DNA of 64,000 nt from Phoronis australis (Eukaryota; Animalia; Phoronida): positions 372,001 to 436,000 of the forward strand of contig NMRA01000076.1 in assembly GCA_002633005.1 (NCBI GenBank), read 5' to 3'. Position numbers and translations under genes: made by a program. Below are positions 82-62,994 of this stretch, piece by piece. Positions within the stretch are counted from its first letter, which is position 1, and each line of letters opens with the position of its first letter. The notes beneath the pieces are model-generated. The model had not been told where the DNA came from and did no database searches. It saw only the letters and a program-made list of their open reading frames with translations.

Positions 82-1107
82 TGGGCTAAGCAATCGTGAA
101 AACATCCAGCCATCCGAAGATGCCTCACTGGCGTCCTCTGTTGGCTCCGATGCTATGCGGCAACGGTTCTCCGTGTCCACCCATCCGCGCCTACCTATGC
201 TGCTCTGCTCAGACGGATATCTAGTCACGGTTCTTTCCCTACCCGAACACATGACAAGTCTGAAGGTGCTACGAGAACTAGTTAGTAAAACAGCACACCA
301 TGTGAATAGAATAAAGGATGCTAGTGATATTGGGTCCACTGTGCCGGGAGGTACGGTCAGTGTTGAGCCTGTGATGCAAAGCACATTGAAGTCGGAAGGA
401 TTGCCGCTCCAGCGTCAGTACAAGTTTGAAGAGTTTGATGGTAGTCTTGGCTCTACACTGGGCAGTCTGGCTGACACTGTTGTGCAAGGCAAGGCAGGGC
501 TACCAGGTGTTTCTGAACTTGAGTCGGGCAAGATTGTGTTCAGTGGCATGGAGGCATTTGGTAAAGTCACCAGTAGTCATAGTAAAGACCCGTCTAAACT
601 TGAACATGGTGAAGTAGACTATGCTCAGATAAAGCTTGGTCTTTTGACCTCCTGGGCCTTGTTGGCGTCCACTAGTGACTTGTGGTCAAAGGAGTATGAT
701 CAGATGGCTAAATACACTGTACGTCATCTCTCGCGTTATTTGACATCCGTGCTCACTACAGACGTGCCTGTTGCAGTGGAACATAAGGCACCAGGCAAGA
801 ATTGGGACGGCAATCTCTACCATGTGTTAGTCATTTTCCGGACACTATTGAATTTTGTGCTGTTTGATGGACTTCGTCAGAATTTATATGGTGCTTCCGT
901 GAAGTTGACTCACGGTATTGTGAGGTCGGTGTTGGATAAGTCTTGTGATAGTACAACTCGGTCTGTGTACAAGACAATGTCGGGATGCTTTGGCGTCCTG
1001 GAGTTTGCAGAGCGTCAACTGAAACGGTGCTATGGTTGGGATACAGTAGGGTTGTTAGATGATGCCTGCTTACCTAGTGGTGATAGTGGAAACCACGTTA
1101 TCAAAGG
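82..1107 (+). CDS. CPLANE1: CPLANE1 exon w1
   Basis: tttcag| acceptor, AGG|gtgaga donor (phase 2-2); QRFSVSTHPRLPMLLCSDGY motif. Confidence 0.88.
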
Positions 1108-16100: not shown

Positions 16101-19100
16101 CTACTTGTGTGCCCTCTAGTGGCAATTTTATTTTTTTACGTTTACCAGTCTGTATCTTCAAATGTCCTCAACAAATTTTCATAAATTTTGAATATAGGCA
16201 TCCATTGTTGAGCTGACACTATCCTCCTGTTTTTGGATGGAATCGAGGTAGTTTGCACCACCTAGTGGCCACGTTTGCTGTTTTCAAATCTTGTTTTTGG
16301 CGTCCACCCCTCAGTCAACCAAATCATTTAAGGGATGGTTTTGAAAATTGGTGTATATGTTCTCAGTGTGAAGAGGATGTTTGATGATGGCAACTGACTA
16401 CTGTGGCACCTACTAGTGGTAGTTTTGTTTTGTTTTGCACCCATAGCTATATCTCCTAAACCCACTGCAGGATCTTTATTAAATTTATTAAGTGCATTTA
16501 TATGAAGAGATGATGACTTTTAGGCAGATCCAACGAACGCTGTGCCCACAAGTGGCAATTTCATTTTGTTCTGTTTTCATTTGTTTCCCTGAAGTTACTT
16601 GACAGATTTTTATGAAATATGGCATGTTTCCGTTTTTGGATGGATTGTACGTTTTTGCACCATCTAAGGGCCATTTTTATGATACAAATAAATAACCCTA
16701 AAAGCACACCATTTGCAATGCATTCGTAGGCGCATTCCAACGCTCGGCGTTGCTCTTGTTATACAACGGGCTTTTAACAGAACACTTGTACTAGAAAATG
16801 AATTTCCTAATGGCTGTTATTTGTACACATTTGTTCTGTTATCAGACTTGGCTGTTCTTCTCTTTTTATGAGAATACCATAAATTACATTGTAAACCGTT
16901 CCTGTTGGCAAAGACTATCATTCTTTGTCTCCTTTTACCAAAGCTGCGTGAGTAAATTCAAGGAAGCACATAAAACATCACTGCTTTTGTAGAATGATAC
17001 CACTTCAGCATTAGTAAGTGTTCTTGCGAAAACACTCAGCACCTGTGCACAGGCAGACAGGTGGGCTACTAGTCGGGTTGGCGATATCATTTGCACGCTG
17101 GATAAAAACGCAAAAGTATTCGACATGGAGTTTCTCACCAAGTTGTTTGACCGCAGTCTCCAATGCGCCCCTGTTGTGGATCCACTTACCATACAGAGGT
17201 TGCAGATTGAAGGTGATGGCCAGTCTTCAAATCAGCGACACGTCACTTGGGAGGCAGTAAATGAGTCTTTCATGAGAGACAGTGGTCATGGTAATAACGC
17301 TGGAGGTACTAATGGACGAGGTAATGCTGCTGGCACGTCGCAGAACGAGGTGAACAGCAAAGATGTAAGGCTGACAGAAGTGAGATCTGATCGTACAGCT
17401 GCAGGACCGAGTTGTGTCTCAACACGTGGACAGAAGTTACACTCGGCTGTGTCAGAGGGTAGTCCTGGTCTGAAAACAAAGACTCTTCAAGCCCTTGATG
17501 ATAACGTTGGAGATCAACAACTACGATTACGTCATATTCGACGAGATGTTCACGCCTTCATGGATGCATTGATGGTTAATGTCGGTGAGATTGCTGCCTC
17601 TTTGTCTGCTGCCACTCAAGAATCTGGCTCCGCAGGGAATAGTCGCACAGCCATCCTTCTCGAACAAGAAGACACGCCAAGAAGTTCACACATGGCGCCC
17701 ACTGAGCGCACGGTTTGCCCATCCAATGTCGTCCAATCCGAGTCTAGTCCTACACAGCTGCAGTTTAACAGTAGCACAATGCTGTCACAAAATGACGTAA
17801 CCGTGAATGCTAACCTATTGGATAATTTCTCGTCGTTGAAGGCGCTGGCACATCGCAAGTCTGACGAATTGTTTCAGATGGCTTTTTTCAAAAACCCAGA
17901 AATTTCAAGCGAAATCTGCGACTATTACAGTAGAATCGAAGTAAGGTACGCTGGTAGTTTGAACCGACAACAATCTCTTCATGCATTACTGCCATGGTTC
18001 CACCGTATTGACAGAGCGACAAGAAGCGACCCATTGTTCAGGATTGATCAAGCTATACAGACTTGTACTGAAGTCATAAGTAATGACATGACTGACCAGG
18101 TCACTGTATTTAGTAATAAGGAATTGAATGTTGTAAGCGTTACTTGTTCTGGTTCTCAAGTCGATGTTGTTGACTGTGCCAGCCAGTGTGAGTTGATATG
18201 CACGAATGTTGCGTTGCAGTTCGAGAATCCATGTGTTGAGTGTGAAGAAGACGTCTCTTACCTGCGTGTTGATCTTTTACCTACTGATGACAATATTGAT
18301 GACATTCTCCTGCTGTCGCCAGATTTGCTGCAACTTTCTTCGAGCCTGTCATCCGTTCCAGATGTTTCTGAAGTGACGAGTCTAACTGAACTGCTTCCCC
18401 AGGATGCGGTTCCCAGAACATTCAAAGAAAGGGAGCCTTACAGTGTTGGCACTGGTGTTCAACCAGATCAAGTATTGTCAATTTCCCAAGGTGTTCAGAC
18501 AAAGCTGTGTAGTTCGGTCTGTGTGCAGTCTGACACTGTGCCCTCATGTTTGGCGTTTGTTCAGAGTATCCACAGACTTGAGAGAAGTACACAGGCTGAT
18601 GCTGTAATCTCCATGGAGAGAGCGTCTCAAGTGAAGCACTGTGCTGTCAAGGCCACTCAGTCAGACTCTGCTAAGGAGAACTCTGTCTTGTCTCAAACTG
18701 GGCCAAGACAAGATTCTACAGCGCAAAAAGTGCAAAGCCTGAATGATGGCATCAGTAACTCTGCTGTTGAAAGTATTTTGCATGCTGATTCCTTTTTGCA
18801 AACTAATGATAACGCTACTAGAGATCGAGGAACTGAGAGCCAGCAGTTTGCTAGTGTATGTCAGTCGTCCGAGTCCAGTCTGTCAGTGATTTGTCCATTT
18901 AGGAATCCACGGGCTCATCACTGGTCCGCAAGATGTGAAGAGTTCTCGAGAATTGAACATGTGACAAAAGTGAACAGTGAGGCGGCACTACAGGAGTCTC
19001 CGACACCCGTGGACAGTAACGGTCATGCAGAAACCTTACCCAAGTTGTCTTCTGGGTGTACACAAGCAAAGCTGCTGTACTCCAGGAGCTCCAAGGCGAG

Positions 19101-22100
19101 GCCGATGTTGGCGGATAATGTCGCCATCGAGGCTCATGACTCAGCAATGCAGGAACAAACTGGGATAGCCGAGATGGGTTTCAGCAGTTGTACCAAAGCA
19201 GGGTCTTTAACCAACGCTATTGGTGTCCAGGTGGAGAGCCCATTCATGAGCAGTTCACTTGATTGTGATGGAGTTGGCTGTCGAACTGAATGGCGAGAGC
19301 AAGGCGTGCAATGGGAAAACCTTTCCAGTGATGGTGTGCCTGCAATGGCGACTGAAGATGCTTCTATGCAGACTTGCCGTTTACCTGTTCAGAACCAGTC
19401 CACTCAAGACTCACTTAGACTCGATGATGGTCTCTGGACAATCTTACCCGACTCCACCTCTGTGGAGGACACCAACAACAATGTTGGGTTGGAGGTTGTT
19501 ATATCTAATGGTGGAGATTTTGATGAGTCTGACAATTACGATTTTTCTATTGAAATAGGTTTTGCTGAGCCTTCCGGTGTTGTCTTGAAACAAGTTAACA
19601 TACAGGAGGTAGACAGTGATTCAGCTGTGATTGGCTGTGTTCAAGATGCCAACATTCCGCATCCAACATCATGGAGAGAATCACGCTTGAAAGAGGTGTG
19701 TGACTTGGGCAACCAGACAGATCTTCCCTATGGATCACAAAGTGCTGTTTGTGGTGATGAGAAAATCTCTGACGTTGCTCTTAGTCGTAGCGTTCAAGAA
19801 AAATGTGTACAAACTGATACAAAGGTAGAAAATCAACACATACAAGTTGATGAAGAATTTCTACCTTCTTGTTCCAAGTCTCAAACGTCCGTAAGAACCT
19901 ACTGCCGAACACCGAAAAGTATTCTGCCAGATATTTGGCACAGTGGTTGTACTCAACCACTTTCCTACAGAGGCAAACCTTTCCGAGTTAAAAGGAAAAT
20001 TTTCAAATCCTTGTCTTTGTGGAGAGGAATGCCTCATCCAGATTTACGGGAACCAATTGCTGTCTGCGAAGAAAACATCAACCCATTACCCTGTGCAAGT
20101 TTGCAACAGACTCGTTTTTTTGATCTGAATTCTTTGTCATGCACTCTCAGTTCTAGTTCTTATCAGTCCTGTACATCTGGAGTTGATCAAGAATGTAAAG
20201 TTGCTGAAAACATTGCTGCGGAAGAGGTTCCGCTGTGTGAAAATAGTAATGGTGTCCCAACTGGTAAAACAGTGACTTGCAAAAGCGTGGCGTCTGCAAG
20301 AGGTAGCCAGTCATGTGAAAATTTTATGAAGAATCACTACAGCAAACAATGTGTTGAGGAATCGGATCTTGTCACTGATCTTGCCAAATTTTCCAGTGAA
20401 CAGTTGAAAGAAATTGTCGAGTCCTCAAATCACGAAGTCTGGGTGGTACCGCCGTGTGCCGTGGCCAAACTGTTAGACATCGTCTCGCAGCAGGACACTG
20501 CGACTCTGTGTGGACAAAAAACTTTCATTGCGAAGTGTCTGAAACAGTGCATGAATGAGAAGGTCAAGTCATACTCCAGTTTTCTGGAAAATTCCAGTGA
20601 AACCGTCAAGGACAGGCGTGGACGTTACAGAAAGATGGACCAGCAAGCGTTTCAAACGGCTATAAAGGAAAGAATGTACAGGCTGTCAGAAGATCTTTGC
20701 AAAACTTTGAGTAGTAATCTTGAAGATTTTCCGCCATCGTTTGTGGGAAACTTTAATGGGGAGGCTGACGTGGACGCCAGCAGTGCACCTGCTGATGGTG
20801 ATTACACCCCCCACCAACACAACTCTATGGTAACCAACAGAAGCTTTCTAGACTCCCAGGCTCTGGCAGCAGTCACCCCTTTGCATGCTGTTTGTTGTCC
20901 ACCATTGTCGCCATCACCAAGTTACCAGGGACCAATACCTAATGCAAGTGAAATCCGGCCGCAGTGTTCGATGGTTAAACAAGCATTTAAGAACCTAGTG
21001 CATGCCTGTTCCACTGTTGGCCAAGTCCAGAAAGATAGAGATACATTTTCTTGCAAAAACAATCCCGTAGATGTGTGTACAAGGAAATGTCACAGTGTGT
21101 GTTTACAGCAGTCAAGAGTGAGACAGGTTTTCATGGACTTGTTTCACACACACTCTGCAGCTGATTCTAATTGGAATACGTTTTGCATGGTAACATTTTT
21201 GTTTGGCTGTATGCTTCATGTTTTTTGTTTGTTTTTTGTTTGTTTGGCTTTGTTGTCTATCCTTAAGTTTTGCCTCTGAAATTTTACTTTTTAAGGTGAA
21301 AAATGTGGCATTTTTGAGCAGTCACTTTTTCTGATCTTAGTGGTTTCGATCTTCTTTACATGTAATTTTATAGAGTCCCTGGCTACGTTATCCTGTTTTT
21401 GTTTAATTTCACGTCCATTTTTGTTGTGTTTCTTTGTTTAGTTTTTGTTACAACTTCATACAATTTTGGTTAGTTTTTCTTTATTCTGTTCTCTGTTATT
21501 TTGTTACTTTTTGTAATTATCATTGTTGGCTTTTCGGAATTTCTTATTTTGGTTCTTGAACAAACCTAACTACAGCTTGTCTCATTTCAAAAGGTGTCGC
21601 CTGATTCTCACTAAAAATAATTAAACTCAAGGTCCTTGGCACCCACTTAACTGAAATGATCTGACCAGCTGTGTTCAGCATCAGCTGCAACTTCACTCGT
21701 TTGTTTCTGAGGCAAATCTCGTGTGCTTCCTTATTGTATAGCATCGAATAGAATGTTCACATGCAGATGCTTGGCTGTGTTGCCTTTAACAAAAGAAATC
21801 CTATGCCTAGATAATACGAAATTGTACTAGAATCAAGTGGGTGACAATTTTTAAAATGTTCAGGATGAGTTTGGCACATTCAGCTTTTGTATAGTTTTGA
21901 TTGACACTCTTGAAGGTACAGAGAGAACCACCTGTTGACGAGTTGAAAAAGGAGGGTTACTATGATGGTCAGCAGTCCAGTATTGGTGATCAGTCTATGA
22001 ACATGGGACTAGACGATGTGCAGATAAACCAAGGATATGTCATTAAGCCAGGTAGGATATTTGTTGGCAGCTAATGGATTTCGGGCACCCATTTTATTAA

Positions 22101-25100
22101 AGGGGGTAAGTCCTGTCGGAGGGATGTCCTGTCAGATTGTCCAAGGTATGTCATTGCAAACATGTTGCTGTTTTTAAGTGCGAAAACATGGCAACAAGTA
22201 AATTTTTCATAACCAAAGTTTACCATCATGAACCATGTTAATGAGCTGAATGCCAATCAAAATTGAAAATATGCCTAATTATTAGTATTTTTGTCACTTG
22301 TTGTCTTTTTTTTCCTCTAAACTTGTGTTAACTTTATTTCAATTCAGCAACAAATTCATCCGTCCGTTTTTTGATTGGCTTATGAAGAAATTTTATTGGA
22401 TTTAAAGAAAGAGGCAACAAGTGTATAATGGCAATCAAAATCATTAATTAAAAGAATTTCCAGGTTAACCAAATGTATCTCTGTGTTGGTTTGGCCCAAA
22501 AGAGTTAGAAATACGAGGTAATGCAACAAAGTGGATATAAAGTGGTGTGTAGGTTGTTACTGGTTTGCAAGAATGAGCTTGCTGGCAAAAATGATCTGCT
22601 GCAAATCAATAAACTTTGTCCGTTAAAAGAATTTTAAACCCTGTTTTCCCGAGGTCACCAAAAGCTTGTTTGGTCACCTACTGGTGTACCTTTAGTTACT
22701 CTATTGACAGGTAGAAGCACTATTCAAGTGAGACATTTCCACCTGTGTCATGGATTGGTTTTATGTTTTGAGATAGATGGTGTTTTCCGAAAGCTGTCCG
22801 AACTCGTNATAGAAAGTGGTGTGTAGGTTGTTAGAAATACGAGGTAATGCAACAAAGTGGATATAAAGTGGTGTGTAGGTTGTTACTGGTTTGTAAGAAT
22901 GAGCTTGCTGGCAAAAATGATCTGCTGCAAATCAATAAACTTTGTCCGTTAAAAGAATTTTAAACCCTGTTTTCCCGAGGTCACCAAAAGCTTGTTTGGT
23001 CACCTACTGGTGTACCTTTAGTTACTCTATTGACAGGTAGAAGCACTATTCAAGTGAGACATTTCCACCTGTGTCATGGATTGGTTTTATGTTTTGAGAT
23101 AGATGGTGTTTTCCGAAAGCTGTCCGAACTCGTCACGGCTAATGCAAAAAAGAAATCGGCCTGATTTCTGATGAATATTGAGGAATTTTTGCAATTAACA
23201 AGTGCACACAACTCATTTTTTGGGGAAAGTTTGGGTTGGAATCCCAGCTCTGTGTTGCTTATGTTTCTTATGTAGCTGGGGCATTTACATTTGTGTTTGG
23301 TTTTTGTATTTAGATTCCATAAAACATGATATTGAAACAATGGAAACAGGTGTTATCCTATTTCATGGAAACGTTGAATTCTCACAAGCCATTTTGTCTT
23401 TGTTCAATAGTTCTTATCCTTCAACAGGAAGTTTTGACGACCACTTACCAGAGAAGCAAACTGATAACAATGCTGGCATTCATCTGAGAGCAGCACAGGA
23501 GACTAATAGACAGGTACTGGTGTCTACGTTTCTTATTGAGATTTGGGAGCTAGATAATTGTTTATTGTCTTCAAAGGGTATTTTAGCCATGCGTGCTTGG
23601 CACATGAAATGGCATGGTATGACAAGCAACTTGTACAGACTGATTGCAAACAACGACCTGCCAGTTCTTTCAAAGCCCTCAAATCTCCTCCAATCCGAGT
23701 TACGAACAATTTGAGATGAACTCCGTAATTATAGCACGTGGTCAAAATTTTTTTTGTGGTGGAAGGTAGGTTTGTAGCCGCTTTAAGTCTTTGGATTATT
23801 TTGGATTCATTGACATTTGTGCAACATGTTCAGCGCCCAACGTTGTTGACTACGTGGGTTTGATGTTACTGATGAAGGTTATGATTCATCCAGGTTAATG
23901 TATTATGACAAATAGTTCAGCCAGACGTACTTAGTTAAAACTTTATGTTGCAGGGATTACAACTGTCCCCTTCTACAGACGGGGGTCGACGGGCTGTCGT
24001 AGGTCTTCCCACCTTTCCTGTGAATCTGTACTGGTGTGACCTCTGTTGAGTAGTGAGTGAAATGCCCTCTGCCAGGTTTGGATAGGAGCGAGATTCAACC
24101 TATCTGAACCCTGGCAGAGGCATTTCACTCACTACCCAACAGAAGTTTGCGCCAGTACAGTTTCACAGGGAAGGCGGGGAGGTCTGAGGCCGCCATTAGA
24201 CCATCTTCTATAGAAGAAGACAGTTGTGATTCCGGTAACGTAAATTTTTAACTTGGTGTGTCCTTATGAAATAATCGTAATTAGTCACATACATGGGCTT
24301 GGTGCCATATTGTGTTTGGACGTTTCAAAGTTTTTTAATCTGTTGCTATTACAATCATGTAAATGATTCTATTCTTATTTCCAATGCCATTTCAGGCTCG
24401 CTTCTTGCCTCCTGCTGAGGATCAACCACCAGTTCCCTCTGTTGCCCATTCTGTCAAACAGTCTTCTGCCGAGGAACGCATGGAGGAAGCCATAGACGAA
24501 TATTCGTCTGCCAGAGGTCGCCACATTCTGGCTCCAGACATCTTCATGGGCCTGAGGTTCGCCGATGCTAACGCTCATCCTGGTTCGGGTGTACTGTCCT
24601 CTGAGACACAGGTAAGTAGTTCCGCGGAAGTGCAATTGTAGCATATTCAGAATGTCAATTATGTGGGTGTTTCTGTAAGCCTCGCTCGCTACCAGTTTTT
24701 TGATCATGATGGATTCTCAAGTGAATATACATGACAGCAAGTTATTCATCATCATGCCTTTAAACTGTCATTTGCTGCCAATGTCGGATGCATCGAACCT
24801 GTAGTGAGTGAATTATAATTTGTCAGTGAAACTGTGTTATTCTTTGCCAGGAGCCTACATCTGGAAGAGCCTATCTGAATGTTGCTGACATGGATGCAGA
24901 CCTAGTCAGTGCCATTCTGCAGACTCGCTCTCCCCGTCCAGCAGAAAGGCCAGTGACTCAACAGACGTCTGAGCCGATGAAAGAGGAGACTGCAGTGACA
25001 CCTATAGTGGGAGATTCTATTGAGGAGGAAACTGTGGCTTTGGCAGATAGGGTCACGGTGGGCCTTCTGGGGCAGAAGTCTTCTCCTGAATCTGAGTATG

Positions 25101-28100
25101 TTGCACAGATAGGTTATTCTTAGCAAACATTTTTAAGTCTGGTCTGTACGCCACCATTTCGCCACATTACGTGAATTAATGAACATAAGTTGGAAAAGAT
25201 TTCCACCTCGACTGGGATCGAATCTGAAATGTTTTTGATCTGTATTTCAACGCTGGTTCAAGATATACGTACTCATAGGTTATTCTTATCGCACATTTTT
25301 ATTCGACTGCGTTATTATCCCTGTTTATTGCTTTGGGAGACTTCCAAATAATGAGTAAGGTTGTGTCATCGCACATGGCCTGATGCAGTACCCTGGCTAT
25401 AGAGAAATGATTCTGTACCCAAGACGATTGCTCAAAGTCAAATTAGCTACATGAGGCAATACTTGGCTGCTTATCTGCACTACATGGGTTGGTATGCTTC
25501 GAAGTCACTGCTTAATCTTTAATACGGGGTTTAAATTTGTGTATGTTGGCACTCGGTGTATACACACCCTTGTATTGGCACAGGATACACACTTTGAAAA
25601 ATCCCACTGCACTTGGGAATTGTAGTTGGCATCGATTAATTGTCCAACCAAAACTTTACGGCATCTTGTGACACAGCGTTTTTAGAAAATGGATTTTGTG
25701 GCAATTATTTCAAAAATGTTCTTTCTCCACTAGGAGGCAGGACGCGATGGTTCACCTGGCCAAGAGGCTGCGCAACGTGCAGAAGAGTAAGATTGCCCAA
25801 CGCCTTCAAGAGATGGATGAACAGTTCCAGGCTATCAGTCAAGTCAGCCAGAAGGTGGAGTCGGAGTTCAGGGACACCAAACTAGTGAGTAATCCTATTC
25901 TACCAGACAGTCACTCATAACCTACCTGCTAATCACTCCCTCTAGTGTTTGATCATGAAACTATCCCATTTCCATACTTTTGGTGCATGACACGACGAGC
26001 CATCATGCGATCATGTTGAGCCTTGTCCCAGCCAATAACTACCTCAAGTTCTTCGAAACCCCACAAAGTACTTCTAATCTGAGTGAAGAGCAAGGTGAGA
26101 TTGGTAGTGAGTAGCCTAAATGAGAAGCTATTTTTTGTCAGAATGCGCGTGCGTAAAAGTTTCATCTTACAGCGGTGCCATTGCAGTAGTGATGTCTGGT
26201 GTCAAAATTTTGGGTAAGTAGGAAAGAGAGTGCCGGATAAATGAAATCAACACAGGTACAGCTAAGGTAGTGAGAATATGATATGGAGTACTCCAGAATA
26301 CAGACATGGTGTTTATGTTATGTAATGAAATATGTATGTACGGTTTGTTGTCAGCCTTGACCTGTAGCAGTTTTGATGTGTACTGTGAGAACAATGTTGT
26401 TCTCTTCTTCCTTCAAACAAATCACGTGGTCAAGACTATGACTCTTACACGTTGGCGTGTGTTAAAAATGTAGTCGAAGCAGATCCAGAGGTCCGTTCCA
26501 AGAAAACTTACTTAGCTATGACAAATCTTAAATTTCAGTCAATTTTAAGATAAAACTTAGATTTGTCTCAAGTCCGTTTCATAAAAGAGATCTTACGTTT
26601 GACTTATTTGTGACTTAAGTTTGTCTTAATTTTGACCATCTTACCGGATGTGGAAGTTTCAAAGTTTTGAAGTTGAGACAAATCTTAGACTTAATAAGTC
26701 AAAAGTTCTCTTAAGTCAGTTTCTTAGAGTGGGCCCCAGGACTCTGTAAGTGATTATTGCCCAGTTTTGTTAAAGAAGGAGATGTGGTCGTAATCCTGTG
26801 GTCTTTTGATATTGATATGTTATAAGCTCGTTGCATTGGGGAGAGGCTAACGCTTTTAATGCAAAGTGCAAAAATGTATTTCTGAATGTTTTATTTGCAG
26901 CTGTTGAACACTGTGGAAAACCTTGCTCAGGCTTCCCATCCGAGCCAGTACCCCCCAGCTGAAGTGGCGCAGCCCAAGCTCACTGTCACCCTTGCTGATG
27001 CTCCAGAGCAGTCCACATCTCCTCAGGGGCCACAAGCAGTTGACAGTGCACGGTATGCACAGAAATTGCCATCAACGCAGTTGGATGTTATTGTAAGTGT
27101 CAGCGATGACTTCAATGACTCTCCACTCAGCCATCACTCTGAAGCGTCCAGCAACAACAACAGTGGGTCTTCTTGGTCTAAGAGTCCAAGGTCAGCGAGC
27201 ACGCCAAAAAGTCAGCGAGGGGTGAGTCAACTATCCGCCGCTTTCGCTTCGCAAACTATGGTTTACCAGAAGTTAGCCAGAATAAACAGACATGCAAACC
27301 AAAGCATGCAAGTGAATAATACCAGTCCTTTTGTTCAATCTAGAGGGTAATGTGTATAAATTATAGGGCTGCCAACTGTTATGAATATTTGCATACTCTA
27401 CAATCTTTTAGGACCTGAACATTCACTATATTCATGTTTTCAAGTGTTATGGATTTTGAGTGGTTGTTTCTCTTCAAAAATCTAAAAGCAAAAAATATCT
27501 TAATAGTTGAGAGGACAATATCTGAACAAGAAAATGTGTCCTGAGTACTGGGCACTGGTATATAATATGTCCTGAGTACTGGGCACTGGAATATAATGTA
27601 ATTTACATGCAAGATTTTCGTTTTGTGACTGACCAATGAAAAATGCCCTTAGTTGACGTTGCATTGTGAGGATCATTGTTGAGAGCGAAACTTCAGAGAC
27701 AAATATCACGTGGAATTAAATTAGATTTAAGAATTGAGAAAAGGAATTCACCGCATTTCGTCACTGTACTTCAGCATGGAAAACTTCGGTGCCTACAACA
27801 TTGGTATTGATCAGTAAATTGCAACGAGATATTTAGTGGTACGGAGTAGTCAACACAGAAAAAGCAGACAACATGGATGTAATGAGCTGAGCTTTTATGC
27901 ATTGTTTTTTTTTATAAACACAATGTGAATCTGAAATCTTTTGGGGTGTATCACACTTTCTTGATTGAAATTTAAACTTCTTGAAAGTTTTGGAAACCAT
28001 GCAAGTTTTCACTTGCAAAATATGGATTTTTAACTTAGAAGTTACAGGTTATGTGCTTTATGGGTTGGCAGCCGTGAAATTAAGACTACACTGAGCAGAT

Positions 28101-40100: not shown

Positions 40101-43100
40101 CTCCAGACGGACAAGTACGTGAATATTACATGTCTAGACAACAAAGACCGTCAGAGGAACAGGCAGTTGAGAGAGAATCACCACTTGATGTTGATCAACA
40201 AGGTATGTACAAAGGACAGAGACCATCAAAGAAGAAATTTCTTGTTGATCAAAAACAAGAAGCAACAGGCAAACATGGTGTGTCTAAAGCAAAAAAACTT
40301 TCTGAGGAACAAACAGTAGTTGATCAGAAACGGAGAACATCACTTCAAGAAGTTGATCAGCAAGGTATGTATACACAAAAGAGACAGTCTGTCGAACAAT
40401 CTATAGAAAGCCGGAATAAAGCAGCAATGCTTGAGCAAGAAGACCAACAAGCCGGGTATAGTGAGCAGAAGCAACCAGAGCAGCAAGCACCTCTAGATGA
40501 GCAGCATAAGGCGTCCCTGGAACATGTTGACCAACAAGACAAGTGTGAACAGCAGAGGATGTTAGAAGAACAATTTCTTGTTGATCGACAGCAAAGGTCA
40601 TCACAGAAACAAGTTGAACAAAGAAACATGCATGAACTACAGAGACCATCAGACGAAGGACAGAGGGCATCACCGGAAAATTTTGCTGAACATGACACAA
40701 ATAAACAACGAAGGCTGTCAGAGGAACAATCTCTTACAGATCAGCAACAAAGGGCATCACTTAAAGGTGTTGACCAGGGGGTATCTTTGGTGAAACGGCA
40801 ACAAGCAGACCAACAAGATTTGTATAAACAACAAAAAGCATCAGAGGAGCAAGCTGTTGTAGATCAGCAGCAGAGAGCAGCTCTGGAAAAGGTTGACCAA
40901 GACATGCAAAGGCAACTGAATTTTTTGCAGAAAAAGGAGTGTTCGGATCAGCAACACAGGGCTTCACTGGATCAGGTTGGTCAACAAGACATCCAAGAAC
41001 AAGCAGCGTCACATGATCAAAAAGATCAAGATGTTTGTGAACAGCAAAGATTTTCAGGTGAATATGGCCTTCAAGAGCAACACAATGGAACATCAGTCGA
41101 ACAAGCTGATATACAGTACCTTACTAAACAACAGAGACTGCCAGAGGAGCAGAAGTTAGTTGATCAGCAACAGATAGGATTGCATGAACAGGTAGAGCCT
41201 CTGAAAGCACACGAACAGAAGAAGATGCCTGGAAAACAATCCCTTGCAGATCACCAACACGTGGTATCACACGAAGAAGTTGATCAGCAAGAAATGTGTA
41301 AACATAAACAACTTGGACCATTTGAAGAGCAGTCACCAGTGGAACAGCAGCAGAGGACATCACTTGATCAAGTTAATCAAAGCATTGATGAGAAAAAGTT
41401 GGCGTCAGAGGAGTGGTCTTTTGTAGAACAAGGGAGAGTGTCAATCAAATATACTGATCAGCATGAATTTAGTCAACAACAGAGAATGTCAACCGAACAA
41501 TCACTGGTAGATCAACAACAAACGGCATCTCTGGATCAAGTTGATCAAAACATTTATAAGCAACTATCAGAGGAACAATCTTATGTAGATGAGCAGCAGA
41601 GAGCATCACGCGAACATTTTGATCAAAGCACTTACGCGCAACGGACATCATCGGAGGAGCAAATTTTTATAGATCAGCAACCAAGAATATCACTTAAACA
41701 TGTTGACCAACAAGAAAAAAATAAACAGAGAGGACAGACATTTGTTAATGAGCAGCAAAGGGGGTTGCAGGAAAAATATGAACATCGGAGATCTTCAGCT
41801 GAACAATCTGTTGTAGATCAGAAACATGAACAAATTGGTCAACACGTCATGTATAAACAGCAAGGACTAGTAGAGCAGCAGGAGAGTGCATTACAGGACC
41901 AAGTTGACCAACAAAGTATTTATAAACTACAGGGGGATGCTGTTGTGGATGAACAACAAAGGCCATCGCATGGAGAAGTGGATCAACACGATAGCCACAA
42001 ACAAAAGATCCTGTCTGAGAATGGAGTCCTTGATCAACATCATGAAATATCTCTAGACCAAGGTCAACAGCAAGAAGATAAACAACTGAGACCGTCTGAA
42101 GAACAAGCATTGATGGGCGCTCACAAGAGTTTATTACTAACACAAGTTGATCAACAAGTCACGGATCTGTCGCAGATGATGAGTAAGGAGCAAGATCGAA
42201 ATATACCATCTATGGAACAAGCACTTGTGGAACAACAACAAAAAGCATCTCCTGATTATGAAAAATCAGAGCTTGTGGATCGGCAGCAGCAGCACAGGAC
42301 ATTGCTAGAGCAGGTACACCAACTAGCACATAGGGAAGAATATATGCTTGGAGATAAACAACCTGGACTGTCCTTAGAGGAAGTGGAGGAAGGTGGTCAA
42401 CAGGGACTGTGTGGAGATCTCATACCCATTGATGAGCAACATGGTGCATCTCAAGAGGAAAGTGGTCAGCGAATGCTGTCTGAAGAATACCTCCCTAATG
42501 ATCAACAGCAAATAGCGTCACTTGAAAAGCTTAGTCAACAAGTGCTGTCTGAAGAATGCATGCCTGCTGACCAACAACACAAAACTGCTTTGGAGCAAGT
42601 ACATCAAGTAAAGCCGACTGAGGAATGTGTGTTTGTTGATCAACAACATAAAATGTCTGCGGAGCGAGTTGGTCAGATAAGAAAATCTCAAGGACAAATT
42701 GTTGTTGACAAATGGCAGAAGTCGTCTTCAGAGCAAGTTGGTCAGAGAATACCATCTGAAGAACTTGAGTTTTTGAGCCAACAGCAGAGAGGATTTATGG
42801 ATGGAGTTGTTGATCACAAGAAATATTCTGTAGACCAGGTGTTTAGTGGTCAACATCAAAGAGAAGCTCTAGATCAAGCCAATCAATCAAGCCCATTGGA
42901 AGAACAACTGCTTGTTGATCAGCAACAGAGAACAGCTCTACAGCAGACTGCTCAACAGATGTCCTCAGTTGAGCAAGTCCTTGGTGGTCAGGAAGAAAGA
43001 GCATCTCACGAAGAAGGATGTCGACTAACAGCATCTGAAGAAAAAGTGCTCATGAAGCTAGTTGATGATCGTGGACAGTTTGAAGAAGAACTGGCTTTTG

Positions 43101-46100
43101 GTGAACTGCTTGGAACATCTTTAGAGCAAATTGGAAAACAAAAACTACTAAGTGAAGAACATGTGCGTGTGGATCAACAACAAAGATCATCTCTAGAGCA
43201 AGAGCTTGCGCTCAAAGAGCAGAGATCATATCTGAAACAAGTTGATCAACAGAAAACATCTGATGAGCAGGCTATCATTGATCAACATCAGAGAGCTTCT
43301 GTGGAACAAGTTGGTCAGCAAAAGCAATCTGAAGAACAAATTGTTATAGCCCAACAGAAACCATCTTTCAAGCAGGTTGAAGAAAGAAAACTGTCAAAAG
43401 AACAAGAGCTTATGAAACAACAACAAGGAGTTTGTCAGGAGCAGGTTGATCTTCAGGAACCATCTGAGGAGCATGTGCTTGTTAGTCAGAAACAAATGGT
43501 GTCTCTTGAGAGAGTTGGTCAGCAAGGGCCACCTGAACAACAAAATGTTGTCCTTGAAGAAGAGAGAGCATCTCTGGGACAAATTGATCAACAAAAAGCC
43601 GAGGACGACGCTCTAAATGCTCAAGAACTGAGAGGGTCTGTGGAACAAATTGGTAAACAAAAATCAACTGATGAACAAATGCTTGTAGATCAAAAGCAAA
43701 AAATTGAGCAACAGAAACTATCTGAAGAGCAACAGCCTGTTGGTCAACAAGAAGTTGATTTTCAGAAACCAATTGCGGAACAAGTTTGTGTTGATCAGCA
43801 ACCAAGAACATCTCTTGAGCAAGTGGGTCAGCAAAGACAACTTGAAAAGGAAGAGCTTGTGTTTGAAGAACAGATGACATCTTTGGTGGAAATTGGTGGA
43901 TCAGAACCATCAGAAAAACATGCATATTTGGAGAAAGTTAATCAAGAAGAAGGATCTGAAGAACAAGGGTATCTTGAACAGCAGCAGCAACCGCAGAGGG
44001 TATCGTTGAAGCAGGTTGGGCAAAGAAAAACATCTGAAGAGCTCCAGATTTTAGGTCGACAACAACAGGGAGATTTTCCAGAGCAGTTTGACTTTCAGGA
44101 ACCATTCGATGAACAAGTATTTGTTGATTCACGTCATGTTGAGGGAGTTACACAACAAAGATTATCTGAAGCTCTGGTGCTTGCTAAAGGCCAGGAAACA
44201 TCTCTTGAGCCTAGTTCACAGCAAAAGCCTGAAGAACAAGTTAGTCTTCAAGAACCAGTTGTTGACCAAGATCATATGTTTCAAGTAAAGAAAACTTCTC
44301 CTGAGCAACTATCTCAAGAAAGGTCATCTGAAGATCATGTGCTCACCAAACATCAAGAACAATATAGACAACAGAGTTTGACTGGAGTACAAGTAGATGA
44401 ACAGAGAACCTCTCTGAAGCCAGTTGAGAAACAACAGCCATCTGAGGAACAAGTATTTGTTGATCCACGTCATGTTGAGGGAATTACACAACAAAGGTTA
44501 TCTGAGGCTCTGGTGTTTGGAAAAGGCCAGGAAACATCTCTTGAGCCTAGTTCACAGCAAAAGCCTGAAGAACAAGTTAGTCTTCAAGAACCAGTTGCTG
44601 ACCAAGATCATATGTTTCAAGTAAAGAAAACTTCTCCTGAGCAATTATCTCAAGAAAGGTCGTCTGAAGATTATGTGCCCACCGAACATCAAGAACAATA
44701 TAGTCAACAGAGTTTGACTGAAGTACAAGTAGATGAGCAGAGAACCTCTCTGAAGCCAGTTGAGAAACAACAGCCATCTAAGGAACAAGTATTTGTTGAT
44801 CCACGTCATGTTGAGGAAGTTACACAACAAAGATTATCTGAAGCTCTGGTGCTTGCAAAAGGCCAGGAAACATCTCTTGAGCCTAGTTCACAGCAAAAGC
44901 CTGAAGAACAAGTTAGTCTTCAAGAACCAGTTGCTGACCAAGATCATATGATTCAAGTAAAGAAAACTTCTCGTGAGCAATTATCTCAAGAAAGGTCATC
45001 TGAAGATTATGTGCCCACCGAACATCAAGAACAATATAGTCAACAGAGTTTGACTGGAGTACAAGTAGATGAACAGAGAACCTCTCTGAAGCCAGTTGAG
45101 AAACAACAGCCATCTAAGGAACACGCGTTTGTTGATCAGCGACTTAGTGTAGTTCCACTAAGTCGAGTTTCAGAAGAACAACTACATTCTGATGATCATA
45201 AGAAATCTTCATTGATGCCTGCACATGTTGAAACTGGTGTTGAAGAAGAGATCTTGTTCCAGCAAGAAGGGTATTCATTAGGTGACAGCTTTGATGAACA
45301 TCAAAATGATGTTGCGGCCAAACAAGATTCTGTTGAGAAAGAGGCTGTTATACCAGAAAGCAAGCAGCACGTTTACGTAAACAAAGCTGATGTTGGCCAT
45401 GAGGACATGAAACATTCTAAACCTCTGAAGTCTAGTTTTAATGAGCGTGACAGAGAACCAGGAACTCAGAGAACTTCAGTGTCTCAAGCACAACAACAAC
45501 AAAAGCAAGAGAAACAAGAAAAACAAGATGAAGAAAAACACGAACAACAAAAACAGCAGCAACAGAGAAGTTCATTGATGCAGAGAGATTCAGTGACTTC
45601 AGCACGTTCCCAGCATCAAAAACAGAGAGAATCAATAAGCAAATTTAATGAACACCAACAGAGAGATTCTGTGACTTCAGCTCATTCCCAGCAGCAAAAA
45701 CAGAGAGAATCAATGAGCAAATCTAATGAACAAGAACAGAGAGATTCAATGACTTCAGCGCTTCCCCAACAGCAAAATCAGAGAAAATCAATACGCAAAT
45801 CTAAAGAACAACAGAGGGATTCAGTGACTTCAACACCTCAGCATCAAAAACAGGGAGAATCAGTCAGCAAATCCAGTGAACAACAGAGAGAATCAGTGAC
45901 TTCAGCACGTTTCCAGCAACAAATGCAGAGAGAATCAATAAGCATGTCAAGTGAACAACATAGAAATTCAGTGACTTCAGCACGTTCCCAGCGACAAACT
46001 CAGAGAGAATCAATGAGCATGTCTAGTGAACAACTGAGAAATTCAGTGATTTCAGCACATTCCCAACAGCAAAAGCAGAGAGAATCAATAAGGAAATCTC

Positions 46101-49100
46101 ATGAACAACAACAGAGAGATTCAGTGACTTCAGCACGTTCCCAGCAGCAAAAGCAGAGAGAATCAATAAGAAAATCTCATGAACAACAACAAAGAGATTC
46201 AGTGACTTCAACTCGTTCCCAACAGGAAAAGCAGAGAGAATCAATAAGCAAATCTTATGAACAACAACAGAGAGACTCAGTGAGTTCAATTCCTTCCCAG
46301 CATCAAAAACACAGAGAATCAATAAGCAAATCTAGTGAACAACAACAGAGAGACTCAGTGGGTTCAATTCCTTCCCAGCATCAAAAACACAGAGAATCAA
46401 TACGCAAATCTAGTGAACAACAGAGAGACTCAGTGGCTTCAGCATTTTCCCTGCAGCAAAAACAGAGAGAATCCTTAAGCAAATCTTATGAACAACGACG
46501 AGTTTCACCAACTCCACTAGTACAGCTTGAGCAACAGAGAAAGTCTATGACTACACCACTTGAAAAACGAAAAGTGTCGCTGGGCCAGCAATACATATCA
46601 GAGCAACAAGGAAACCAAAGAGATTCGAAAACCCGCGTGAGTTCACCAGGTGTCAGGGGTGAGACTGCACAGCTTCAGCCGACTTCGTTATCTACTAGCG
46701 CAAGTAATGAAAGTGGCATTTCAGTATCCGACCATTTGTCTTTTAATGAAGACCGAGGTAGTTGTTTTGTAAATGAGAAATATACCATATTGCTTCTGGT
46801 GAATAAATTTTGTTAGTTTTTGTTTTGGTGTATTATTGTTGTGTTTTATTTGGTAAATTTGTTGCAGTTTATAATCAGATATTTTGTACTTTTTGTGTTT
46901 CTGGAGTCTGTTCCAGGAAAACTGACTTGCCTAAGACTAACTTACATTTGTCTTAAATGCATTCCAAGAAAATGGTCTTAGTTTGACTTGAGAGTTTTCT
47001 TACTTAGATTTTGTCTTAAATTTGACACAACTTACCGAATGTGGATGTTAGGAGGTTGAGACTAGTCTTAGACTTACGTAAAATTGAACTTAAGTTTGTT
47101 TCTTGGAACGGGTTCCTGTTCTTTTATTCAGTATCATCGTTTTTGTTTCTTTTGTTTACCTTTGTTCATTTCAGTTGACTAATTTGTGTATGGAAGAAAT
47201 AGCAGAGTGCAGAAACACAATTTTCATTAATTTTCCAGTCATTCATAATTATTAATAACAAGAGTCATTGTAGAAAGGTCAGTTGCCAATTAATCACCAT
47301 TAGAACTGAAATCCTTTATACTGCAGAACTGTCTCTAGATTTAGTGTTCATTAAAATGTTTCCAGTTTATGTCTGTCATAGCACAGGAAATAACTAGCGC
47401 GCACTTAACAAACTGATTTGAAATTCAGTCCGCAACCAAATTTGTGGGTTGTATTTCTTAACGCATGCCCACCTTCTGATGTTGCAGACTTTGAAGTGGA
47501 AAAACAACCTCGAGTCGAGAAAACTAACCGACCAAGCCGACAGGGGTTGTCAGAAGAGGTGCCCTCAGAAAATGATGTGAGCCGAAGAAGGTCGTCATCG
47601 ATAAAGAAGCATTATACAGAACTGGTCAAAGTTCAAAGGCCAGAGGTTACAAGGAGGAAGTCTTCGGGAGAGCAGAAGAGTTACACGCAAAGACTTAGTG
47701 AGCTTGCGGCTGAACGTCACAGCTTGTCAGGTATGATTATTTGTTTGCTTTTTCGTCGTGCGATTTTTTCAATTGATGCTTCATATGTTTGCACATGTTT
47801 AGGTGCTTGTTATTTGGTGTAGATTAATTTGGCTGTTGCGTGATAACAAAGGTGCAGTTTAACAATTATTGAAAGGTGCAGGGCTTGGAATTTTCTGCGG
47901 AAATGCGGATTTCCGCTTTTTTCCGCTTTTTTCAAATGTTCTGTCCGCGCATTTTATTATATTTCCGCGTAAAAAAATCAGATTTGATATAAAATTTCCG
48001 CGGCAAATTCCTTTCTTACCGCGGCGTTGCAGATGACGTTCACCTCGAAAAGCGGAAGTTGCTCTTTATGTTTCGGAGGAACGTAAATTGTCAACATTGC
48101 CGGGGCATCTGGGTAAGCGTGGTGGGATTTTCAATGGCGTCTTGTGTTATTGTAAACCACGGCGACAAATACTACTGCTCTGCAGGCAAAAATGTGTGGG
48201 TTGGGAGTGGAAGGACAAGCTAAAAGGACGCAGACACATGCTAGTGATGGTGGCAATGTGTGTTTTTTTTTTTCTAGTCCTCCCGATTTTTGAAAGGTCC
48301 ACCTCGACCATTTCAAGGCTGGGTAGCGCGCATGATTTGGGCCGTAAAAGTTTCCGCGTTTTTTGTCATTGATAATTCCAAGCCCTGAAGGTGGTTCGTG
48401 ATAGTGTGATGCTGCTGTTGTATCTGCAGTATTCACTTTTTATGCGCCCACGTATTTATTTGTGGTCGCATATTGCTGTCATCTGTCCGGCATCCGCAGC
48501 TGTATCTCCTAAACCCTCACAGGATCTTGATGAGATTTGGCAGATGTGTTCCTATGAAGCTGATGACGGAGGATGACGATTTTCGGACCTCTCCAACTAC
48601 CGGTCTGTCCCCTAGTGGCAATTTTAGTTTTTTACGCTTCTGTATCTTCGAAGGCCCTCAACAGATTTTCATAAAATTTGGCAGTTATGCATCTATTAGT
48701 AAAATGTTGCCATCCTGCCGTTTTCGTATTGATTTGAGGTACTTTGTGCCACCTAGTGACTCTTTTTACTGTTTTCGAGTCTGTTTTTGGTGTCCGCCCT
48801 TCTATCAACCAAAGCACTCTAGGGATGATTTTGAAAATTGGCATAGATGTTCTTACTGTGAAGAGGGCGGTTGACGCCTGTGACGCCTCCTACTGGCAGT
48901 TTTGTTTGTTTTTGCGGCCATGGCCGTATCTCCTAAACGCTGTACAGGATTTTTATTGAATTTTTCTGGTGTATTTATATGAAGGTGACAACGGAGGACG
49001 ACGACTTTTGGATGGATTGGACTACCAGACTGAGTGTGCCCCCTAGTGGCAATTCAAGTTTTTTACGTTTACTTCTGTATCTTCAAAGGTCGTCGACAGA

Positions 49101-62301: not shown

Positions 62302-62994
62302 CTGCAAACAACGACCAAATTACAAGCTTACAACCTGTAACAAGTAACACCAAAAGCATGCATGGTTTTGACCTGAGTCCAGATTCACTTTGAAACCTAA
62401 TATGTGTCATCACTTTAAGAAAACAAAAAAGCGCCTGCACTCATCAATTCAGCCAAGGTCTTGACTCTTCTCTGAAAAACCCAACAAATAAACAAAGGCA
62501 ATGTTTTCAGCACTGTGGCTTGCAAAGTGAGACACTTTTGATGAGCTCATGATTTTTTTAAAAAGCAACAAAGAAGACCATGAATAACTTTGCTTTGTTT
62601 GGCCTCGTCATACTGTTAAGTGTTTTATCGTATTCATACAAATACACAATTTAACCATTAGAAGAAAAACAAAATATTTCACCTTTTAAGAAAAGACTTA
62701 CCATGAAACTAACATTTAGATGTCATTCCTTACTAAATATGTATTCACTTTAATATGTATCTCACTTAGTTACCTTGTATATTGTAAAATAATTCAAATT
62801 AACAAACGCAGAATGGACTTAACCCTAACACTCACTTTATTTCTGGTGGCACAGACATCATCTCTAGAGACCCAGGTGAACTTGACATGGTCCCATCTGG
62901 TGGTCCGTCGAGATCTAAAAGCAGGACTCTCTAACTAACATTTGGTCATAAAGAAACAAAGAAGGAACTAGGTAATCACGTGTACGAGTATTGT

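Follow-up and report, generated by a model that had tools for sequence, protein, structure and literature searches.

Two frame-preserving mega-exons are spliced into and skipped from transcripts of a CPLANE1 orthologue in Phoronis australis

Background

Human CPLANE1 is a cilium-building gene that is mutated in Joubert syndrome, and the disordered half of its product JBTS17, some 1,600 residues, is the least understood part of this protein. Here we ask whether two very long open reading frames within a CPLANE1-like gene of Phoronis australis belong to that gene as optional exons, and what they could contribute to the tail of the protein. The window is a stretch of 64,000 nucleotides from this one species (NCBI GenBank assembly GCA_002633005.1, contig NMRA01000076.1, positions 372,001-436,000, forward strand), for which a reading made from the letters alone had proposed a 32-exon CPLANE1 gene with two cassette exons and up to four size classes of product.

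Results and discussion

Gene identity and exon model

Homology identifies the gene as the CPLANE1/JBTS17 orthologue, as the sequence-only reading had named it: residues 365-3650 of Lingula JBTS17 (XP_013396199.1, 3,650 aa) are collinear with positions 68-52288 in tblastn, blastp of the short form (both mega-exons left out) gave matches down to E 4e-153, and the named JBTS17/CPLANE1 matches extend from brachiopod to rodent, with homology across the whole length. An independently built model reproduced the 32 exons and their sum of 23,212 nt (Table 1), with about 370 further N-terminal residues encoded upstream of the window. The four combinations of the two long exons all read through without an internal stop and give 3,060, 4,459, 6,337 and 7,736 in-window codons, the first being the figure of about 3,060 expected earlier; the predicted protein would range from ~3,400 to ~8,100 aa, depending on the two optional exons. 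Reads support at least 14 of the 31 introns (11 as listed joints, 3 as loose read ends that match the next exon), and the remaining 17, including 14927-16993, are placed by splice signals, phase and homology.

Exons 1-10 match the helical bundles of human JBTS17 that are predicted to bind INTU, WDPCP and RSG1 (PMC13692098). The counterpart of the human N-terminal WD40 propeller (residues 1-425) falls upstream of the window. At the other end, the last exon alone matched PF15392 with E 3.6e-5 and 24 bits, short of the cut-off of 27, in a scan that took some of the several exons over which the domain is spread, each singly; the same exon scored 60.5 bits against the homologue profile, and PF15392 was matched in 13 of 14 homologues, in 12 of them above the cut-off. 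By orthology, the Phoronis protein would be expected to localise to the basal body and to bind INTU, WDPCP and RSG1.

Table 1. Positions within the window of the CPLANE1 exons and sequence features discussed in the text
Feature	Positions	Strand	Basis
CPLANE1/JBTS17 orthologue, 32 coding exons in the window	82..52291	+	exon model, collinear tblastn, blastp of short form
Exons 1-10, conserved core	82..9326	+	homology; domain limits from PMC13692098
Exon 15, next upstream of mega-exon 1, with phase 0 donor	14687..14927	+	joints 13454-14687, 14927-21916
Mega-exon 1 (exon 16), 4,197 nt, 1,399 aa, ~153 kDa, Ser/Cys-rich cassette	16993..21189	+	ORF, splice sites, RNA
Eight LC8/DYNLL-type anchors (x-Q-T/S/V/A), 10-13 aa spacing, exon residues 502-581 (putative)	18493..18738	+	motif run vs shuffles
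Second cluster of LC8-type anchors, exon residues 940, 951, 964 (putative)	19807..19887	+	motif list, translation
Exon 17, downstream flank of mega-exon 1, with conserved GY-x-I-x-PG block	21916..22051	+	joints, homology
Exon 27, next upstream of mega-exon 2, with phase 1 donor	35888..36153	+	RNA joints
Mega-exon 2 (exon 28), 9,831 nt, adds 3,277 aa, ~376 kDa	36927..46757	+	ORF, splice sites, RNA
Three tandem copies of 336 nt (112 aa), 95% alike, within mega-exon 2	44111..45137	+	repeat scan
Twelve 78-nt (26-aa) repeats rich in R-x-S-hydrophobic, within mega-exon 2	45581..46494	+	repeat scan, RNA
Exon 29, next downstream of mega-exon 2	47488..47730	+	RNA joints; matches Lingula 3293-3350
Last coding exon, C-terminal end of Joubert domain and stop codon	51861..52291	+	Pfam PF15392; homologue profile

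Inclusion and skipping in RNA

Mega-exon 1 (exon 16; 16993-21189, 4,197 nt, phase 0-0) and mega-exon 2 (exon 28; 36927-46757, 9,831 nt, phase 1-1) have the lengths, phases, open frames and AG/GT borders previously ascribed to them. Their frames of 1,399 and 3,276 codons compare with at most 192 and 185 codons, respectively, in 200 shuffled copies, and 679 codons separate the two exons. Neither contains a Pfam family, and neither has a DNA copy elsewhere within the 64-kb window.

Strand-specific RNA samples (X1-X4), matched to the genome by species label only, contain joints of both kinds. Mega-exon 2 is joined to its neighbours by 36153-36927 (15 reads in X1, 6 in X2) and 46757-47488 (47 and 30), and is skipped by 36153-47488 (16 and 7 reads, one X4 contig). 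At mega-exon 1 we found the 3' inclusion joint 21189-21916 (18 reads in X1, 27 in X2) and the skip joint 14927-21916 (14 and 4 reads, one X4 contig); the 5' joint 14927-16993 is not among the joints listed, beyond which there are 20 more, 4 of the 12 constitutive ones included. Sense depth is flat over exon 16 (17-22 in X1, 12-19 in X2) and unbroken over exon 28 (18-70), and near zero in the non-repeat introns beside them. For each exon, some transcripts have it spliced to CPLANE1 exons and others leave it out, and both are almost certainly real cassette exons. The cassette proposal made from sequence is therefore carried by both skip joints and three of the four inclusion joints, and constitutive inclusion is ruled out for either exon by its skip joint. 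The proposed size range is borne out as well; the four classes are likely, short reads being unable to phase the two exons.

At the shared acceptor, inclusion of exon 16 amounts to 56% in X1 (18/32) and 87% in X2 (27/31), that of exon 28 to 75% and 81%; that inclusion is a major form argues against decay-targeted noise. The two samples differ for exon 16 by reads (Fisher p=0.011) and less clearly by distinct starts (p=0.085), no more than a hint of tissue specificity, and do not differ for exon 28 (p=0.62). The X4 contigs have both skip joints and cover 0 of 14,028 mega-exon bases, which, since holes in contigs prove nothing, is a hint only of regulated inclusion. Taken on its own, regulation of mega-exon inclusion seems probable to us, and translation of the long mRNAs into a giant protein very probable.

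Position in the tail and relatives

Human JBTS17 is disordered at residues 1570-3197 (PMC13692098), and both insertions fall in this region, at approximately vertebrate residues 2,500 and 3,050. From this alignment the inserts sit in the disordered tail and leave the predicted CPLANE-binding core intact. With both exons skipped, the anchor-to-anchor distances are 1,065 and 440 aa, and those of 18 homologues span 785-1,129 and 286-461 aa; judged by these homologues, the spacing in the double-skip form is ancestral and the conserved blocks are kept, as the sequence-only reading had anticipated for its conserved motifs.

Neither exon matched any of 156 fetched proteins, among which the longest homologue has 3,699 aa, and the annotated homologues have small cassette differences of 26-66 aa in the tail. 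Word-indexed searches gave no match for exon 16 among proteins of 769-2,449 aa, for exon 10 among those of 1,102-3,145 aa and for a 7-sequence alignment among those of 4,158-5,000 aa; such searches reach 5,000 aa and are blind to any giant orthologue beyond this length. The comparison for exon 28 covered Pfam and the 156 fetched proteins only. In the literature searched we found no giant CPLANE1 isoform, in line with the earlier statement that none was known.

Composition and constraint of the two exons

Exon 28 begins with ~700 basic, Ser-rich residues, followed by Q/E-rich degenerate repeats of 29 and 23 aa; it is rich in Q (16.5%), S (11.5%) and E (10.7%), 98% unfolded by a FoldIndex proxy, and contains 44 R-x-S-hydrophobic sites. 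All 7 rows of its tandem repeats have periods divisible by 3, and the copy number of the 78-nt repeat differs in the RNA donor with the frame kept. The listed differences between RNA and window comprise 9 synonymous and 26 non-synonymous ones in this exon, where 9.7 synonymous would be expected under neutrality, and 21 and 19 in the upstream exons. With pN/pS of ~1.1 there is no sign of selection on residue identity, and the residues of exon 28 look unconstrained. The well-supported indels are in frame, but most fall within triplet or 3n repeats, and their frame is weak evidence for that reason.

These values fit an unlikely alternative in which the exons are real and translated, yet came about by recent, near-neutral expansion of a disordered tail; their frames would persist only because any stop codon would cut short an essential protein, and all isoforms would be equivalent. 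Tandem amplification with copy number varying between individuals, the lack of a homologue of either exon in the range searched and the similar levels at which X1 and X2 include exon 28 are all as such growth would predict. However, skipping would bypass a stop, and an open 9.8-kb frame in most transcripts would then be costly for nothing; moreover, giant ankyrin exons are functional although their sequence is not conserved (PMC5135030). The third objection comes from exon 16, where an evenly spaced series of motifs is not a DNA tandem repeat.

The motifs in question are LC8-type anchors. Exon 16 has 17 loose anchors against 7.8 in shuffles, including, besides the two groups in Table 1, anchors at residues 746, 793, 805 and 908; its longest evenly spaced run is 8 against 1.3 in shuffles (p<=2e-4, for a pattern picked after the sequence was seen), compared with 1 in exon 28 and in the short form, and none of 32 full-length homologue sequences exceeds 2. 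No DNA tandem repeat was reported within the exon, and an anchor run of other origin points to selection on the protein pattern. The motif scan found variant anchors only, strict TQT being absent, and no enrichment of SxIP motifs. By the FoldIndex proxy 37% of the exon is unfolded, with values near zero at residues 500-1000; folding two helix-rich parts from the single sequence gave no usable model (mean pLDDT 42 and 40). A complex prediction for two copies of residues 491-522 with four of a stand-in LC8 gave 0.34, 0.37 and 0.39 against 0.00, 0.21 and 0.02 in controls, a margin below the mark, which we count neither for nor against LC8 binding. KANK1 binds LC8 via clustered, individually weak, non-TQT sites (PMC12803091). 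We hold tentatively that exon 16 may contain an LC8 array. A single anchor just upstream of the insertion is present in 4 of 14 homologues and in the window itself (5/15 against 1.4 expected, after 11 of 26 rows without an anchor motif had been dropped and the pattern widened after looking), which is too weak to claim an ancestral anchor. Titles and abstract openings in the literature gave no description of a CPLANE1-LC8 link. What appears new here is the putative LC8-type run in exon 16, with spacing as in KANK1, and exon 28 as a probable Q/E/S-rich repeat spacer.

The 5' side of mega-exon 1 and the fate of the long RNAs

Mega-exon 1 could also be, partly or wholly, an alternative first exon with a promoter in intron 15, so that its product would be the tail alone without the CPLANE-binding core. 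Such a start could explain why the 5' joint is missing among those listed, why exon 16 depth is flat where 3' bias predicts a slope, and why skip and inclusion reads at 21916 in X1 add up to 32, above the upstream junction counts (6-25), an excess that could come from 3' bias or an internal start; an in-frame Met is available at exon residue 45. Yet the frame opens exactly at 16993, behind a pyrimidine-rich AG in the correct phase, the read flux at 21916 balances upstream in X2, and no pile of molecule starts near 16993 is among those listed. In addition, the depth in the bin 16444-17107, after subtraction of the X3 repeat background, is estimated to fit a sharp edge at 16993 and complete coverage from there on. 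We regard such a first exon as quite improbable.

Special splicing control is required for very long exons, according to PMC11446547, and the long RNAs might be regulatory or untranslated species, held in the nucleus or slowly spliced, with protein made from the skip form only; the spliced flanks, the 3n repeat periods and the open frames (1,399 and 3,276 codons) would not be expected without translation, and we give this possibility very little weight. Finally, although exon 28 is repetitive and a nearby duplicated stretch of the window contains one N, an assembly artefact, transposon ORFs or separate nested genes can practically be dismissed, since reads from other samples span both exons unbroken, RNA joints connect exon 28 and the 3' side of exon 16 to CPLANE1 exons, and neither exon contains a Pfam family.

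A proposed variable tail length

On balance we favour the explanation that the two frame-preserving mega-exons, spliced in or out, lengthen the disordered CPLANE1 tail and set the reach of the Joubert block from the core. Inclusion is predicted to add 1,399 and/or 3,277 residues to the tail, whose length would likely determine the reach of the C-terminal Joubert block at the basal body, measured from the CPLANE-bound core. Exon 28 may serve as a spacer of tail length that phosphorylation at its R-x-S-hydrophobic sites could tune. Exon 16 may bind several LC8 dimers in a cooperative manner and, like KANK1, become a stiff rod; inclusion could differ between cell types with different cilia. A bolder version, which we consider doubtful, treats CPLANE1 as a molecular ruler under splicing control: in an isoform of nearly a megadalton, an LC8-stiffened rod and a phospho-tunable spacer of 3,300 residues, both optional, would set basal-body docking geometry in particular ciliated cells, with similar unannotated mega-exons in CPLANE1 introns of other spiralians.

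A series of isoforms in which the protein grows to more than twice its length, with core and Joubert block intact, shows where the tail tolerates length and suggests that it acts as a tether. It would place giant-exon isoforms also at the basal body, and points to a putative CPLANE1-LC8 link.

Comparison with known systems

Human CPLANE1 (JBTS17/C5orf42, 3,197 aa) and its Lingula counterpart share with the Phoronis protein the order of folded core, long disordered tail and Joubert block, and the skip form is of usual length; unlike the fetched homologues (at most 3,699 aa), Phoronis CPLANE1 has two optional insertions of 1,399 and 3,277 aa. RPGR-ORF15 is likewise a large repetitive exon of a ciliary protein, but it is the terminal exon of a retina-specific isoform and not one of an internal cassette pair. 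Exon 8 of ALMS1, a large repetitive exon of a ciliary/basal-body protein, is constitutive and not part of such a pair either. KANK1 L2 and ASCIZ (PMC12803091 and PMC5963919) share with exon 16 many weak, close LC8-type anchors in the linker of a scaffold protein; for KANK1 LC8 binding was measured and the array is constitutive, whereas Phoronis has a motif pattern on an optional exon.

By analogy, Phoronis CPLANE1 may work like giant ankyrin or ninein isoforms. Exon 18 of ninein (PMC6429586) is a 2,121-nt cassette, i.e. a large exon switched in a microtubule-organising protein, though 2-5 times smaller, conserved and with a known regulator, Qki5. Giant ankyrins (PMC5135030, PMC12798937) include AnkG with a 7.8-kb exon, a Ciona exon of 13.4 kb and Drosophila Ank2 L/XL. 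They belong to another gene and organelle, and the Phoronis gene differs in having two unrelated exons, each skipped; ancient origin and cell-type specificity are established features of the giant ankyrin exons. Like the Phoronis exons, these are very large, internal and in frame, with biased composition and repeat arrays, show no conservation between distant taxa and are sometimes missed by gene prediction.

Gene model and predicted isoforms

Rebuilding CPLANE1 (JBTS17) by hand from read junctions, a homologue profile and phase returned exactly the 32 exons and 23,212 nt proposed in the sequence-only reading, with read support for 14 of 31 introns and the others predicted. Predicted intron 3 (3427-3666) requires a GC donor (GC-AG), and its joint is absent among the joints listed. 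The two mega-exons (exons 16 and 28, see table) were likewise borne out as long ORFs; the longest open run in base-shuffled copies is at most 192 and 185 codons, respectively. Leaving both out gives 3,060 residues in the window without internal stops, as had been claimed, and none of the four exon combinations (3,060, 4,459, 6,337 and 7,736 residues in the window) has one. Since homologue alignments (blastp/tblastn) start at about residue 365-375, the full sizes would be about 3,430, 4,830, 6,710 and 8,110 aa; with the missing start added, the largest predicted isoform would reach about 0.9 MDa.

Coordinates of the mega-exons and of a neighbouring gene
Feature	Position	Strand	Remarks
Mega-exon 1 (exon 16)	16993-21189	+	4,197 nt, phase 0, stop-free, AG/GT-bounded
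Mega-exon 2 (exon 28)	36927-46757	+	9,831 nt, phase 1, stop-free, AG/GT-bounded
HOOK-family gene exons	61452-62327	-	PF05622, E 2.9e-26 and 1.9e-13; convergent with CPLANE1

Intron 24 contains a probable retroelement relic (31787-32653): a faint resemblance to RNase H, with an E of 0.0074 that misses the cut-off, precedes a second short ORF. A 326-nt near-perfect duplication (22504-23133) surrounding the sole N of the window (22808) is probably an assembly overlap.

Alternative splicing of the mega-exons

Three raw RNA runs (X1-X3; about a fifth of each) and one RNA contig set (X4), all carrying the species label of the window, were aligned to two stretches. In X1 and X2, sense-strand reads span both mega-exons end to end, the flanking introns are near zero depth outside repeats, and both inclusion and skipping reads were found for each mega-exon; thus, the cassette claim held, and two frame-symmetric mega-exons are alternatively spliced in true CPLANE1. 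For exon 16 we counted 14 (X1) and 4 (X2) skipping reads and 18 and 27 reads of 3' inclusion; for exon 28, 16 and 7 skipping reads, 15 and 6 of 5' inclusion, and 47 and 30 of 3' inclusion. At the acceptor that both forms share, exon 16 is included in 56% (X1) and 87% (X2) of reads, exon 28 in 75% and 81%. Measured at the donor, exon 28 inclusion is 48% and 46%, a gap that fits depth rising toward the 3' end, while transcript starts inside exon 28 may be an alternative source.

Among the joints proposed for checking, both skips, 21189-21916, 36153-36927 and 46757-47488 were seen; 14927-16993, the 5' joint of exon 16, is absent among the 15 joints listed, beyond which there are 20 more, including 4 of the 12 constitutive model joints, so that its absence does not count as a negative result. 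An internal promoter at exon 16 is the second-ranked rival explanation. Multi-copy elements in adjacent intron 15 (15100-16600), which contain a CGTC-type microsatellite, draw numerous partial reads in each of the four runs, even in X3, where CPLANE1 is nearly unexpressed.

Of the predicted tissue-specific inclusion there is a hint: exon 16 inclusion is unequal in X1 and X2 (p=0.011 counting reads, 0.085 counting distinct starts); exon 28 shows no difference (p=0.62). CPLANE1 is close to silent in X3, a run of the same study (exon 10 depth <1; 3 reads over the second stretch), which makes expression of the gene itself sample-specific. X4 contigs span both skip joints, 889 of 5,507 constitutive bases and 0 of 14,028 mega-exon bases, which is a hint only, because contigs show presence only. 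Short reads count each mega-exon separately, without phasing exon 16 with exon 28; the X2 point estimates (87%, 46%) would force both into about a third of molecules, but their intervals would not.

Ancestral form and insertion points

A search with exon 10 among 1.84 billion representatives found 114 matches at E<=0.001, the longest of 3,687 aa. Named full-length matches are JBTS17/CPLANE1 and the rest are unnamed proteins; they come from a brachiopod, molluscs, a nemertean, an annelid, a lancelet, a hemichordate, a priapulid, a sea anemone and vertebrates, the top ones being spiralian (about 30-35% identity), which makes a spiralian host without near relatives among the sequences searched probable. 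The C-terminal Joubert domain (PF15392) was matched in 13 of 14 homologues tested. In tblastn, 34 long homologues tile the window collinearly (68-52288) and match neither mega-exon; blastp of both mega-exons against all 156 fetched proteins gave nothing at E 0.01. With both removed, the conserved anchor distances are 1,065 and 440 aa, within the range of 18 homologues (785-1,129 and 286-461). By this spacing, the skip form is the ancestral CPLANE1 and both mega-exons are insertions.

Exon 16 interrupts the ancestral protein near vertebrate residue 2,500, immediately ahead of a conserved GY-x-I-x-PG block; the exon 28 insertion sits near residue 3,050, within the Joubert region. In human JBTS17, residues 1570-3197 are predicted to be disordered, fragment 1570-2318 localises to the basal body, and the folded part is where binding of the CPLANE partners is predicted (PMC13692098); both insertions lie C-terminal to this core and, on rough alignment, to the localising fragment. 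Internal differences of 26-192 aa occur between isoforms of annotated homologues, and CPLANE1 of other species may hide exons absent from annotations. The word-indexed homologue search covered proteins of up to 5,000 aa, so public databases may contain a larger CPLANE1.

Predicted properties of the inserted segments

Exon 28 encodes about 700 basic Ser-rich residues followed by Q/E-rich units that recur every 29 or 23 residues, and also contains three 112-aa and twelve 26-aa copies; 98% of it is unfolded (FoldIndex proxy), and its product is predicted to be a spacer. It contains 44 R-x-S-hydrophobic sites (4.1 in shuffles), which are non-independent because the repeats copied them, and which may correspond to Aurora/PKA-type sites.

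Nearly neutral, tolerated lengthening of the disordered tail is the main rival to a functional reading; the differences between RNA and window bear on it. Among those listed, exon 28 has 35 (of 40 listed from 85: 9 synonymous, 26 non-synonymous, 0 nonsense) and the upstream exons 40 (of 256: 21, 19 and 0), giving pN/pS of about 1.1 vs 0.4 (Fisher p=0.02); none listed falls in exon 16. Residue identity in exon 28 thus looks free. Its reading frame looks kept: 7 of 7 tandem-repeat rows have 3n periods and indels with good read support preserve the frame (two +1 calls rest on 2-4 reads each), although the indels are modest evidence because most sit in 3n repeats. Listed synonymous differences are about six-fold rarer in 36927-45010 of mega-exon 2 (9 per about 2,100 sites) than upstream (21 per about 810), which could reflect a recent sweep, splice-enhancer constraint or display bias. 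In an array of 78-nt repeats (45581-46494), RNA joints step backwards by 81 nt, or by 526 nt with 5 intervening letters, each a net multiple of 3, which suggests additional array copies in the RNA donor.

Exon 16 is non-repetitive in DNA, Ser/Cys/Val-rich and partly helical-looking. It contains 17 loose candidate anchors (x-Q-T/S/V/A) for the dimeric protein LC8 (7.8 expected), eight of them consecutive (residues 502-581, spaced 10-13 residues), vs a longest run of 1.3 in shuffles (p<=2e-4, also with 100-residue blocks), for a pattern picked after reading the exon 16 sequence. The longest run is 1 in exon 28 and the short form, and at most 2 in 32 full-length homologue sequences. No strict TQT was found among the exon 16 anchors; weaker binding is typical of non-TQT anchors (PMC12057147). 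KANK1 is described as binding seven LC8 dimers within 126 residues, at sites that are weak, for the most part non-TQT and joined by short linkers, in an assembly predicted to be a rod (PMC12803091). The sole strict TQT of the short form is a canonical K-x-T-Q-T motif in constitutive exon 13 (11937-11951).

If the long mRNAs are translated into proteins of up to about 8,100 aa, the giant isoforms would retain both the core that binds the CPLANE partners and the terminal Joubert block, spaced further apart. Exon 28 would add flexible length, exon 16 a segment that, loaded with LC8, would dimerise and make the tail stiffer, and inclusion could be tuned between cell types.

Comparison with known systems

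Giant CPLANE1 splice isoforms are real and RNA-supported in one species, and apparently new for CPLANE1. As the sequence-only reading had it, none was found in literature on CPLANE1 isoforms or large exons and on invertebrate Jbts17, judged by titles and abstract starts outside subscription journals; within the same scope of journals, giant exons or isoforms combined with cilia and basal bodies returned no publication. ALMS1 is one system for comparison, and RPGR-ORF15 is a ciliary analogue. A tendency of long internal exons to code for disorder is reported (PMC9825244). The CPLANE1 mega-exons appear to work like the 2.1-kb switch exon of ninein (PMC6429586) and like the long exons of giant ankyrins, which are described as composition-biased, not conserved between phyla and overlooked by the Ciona annotation (PMC5135030).
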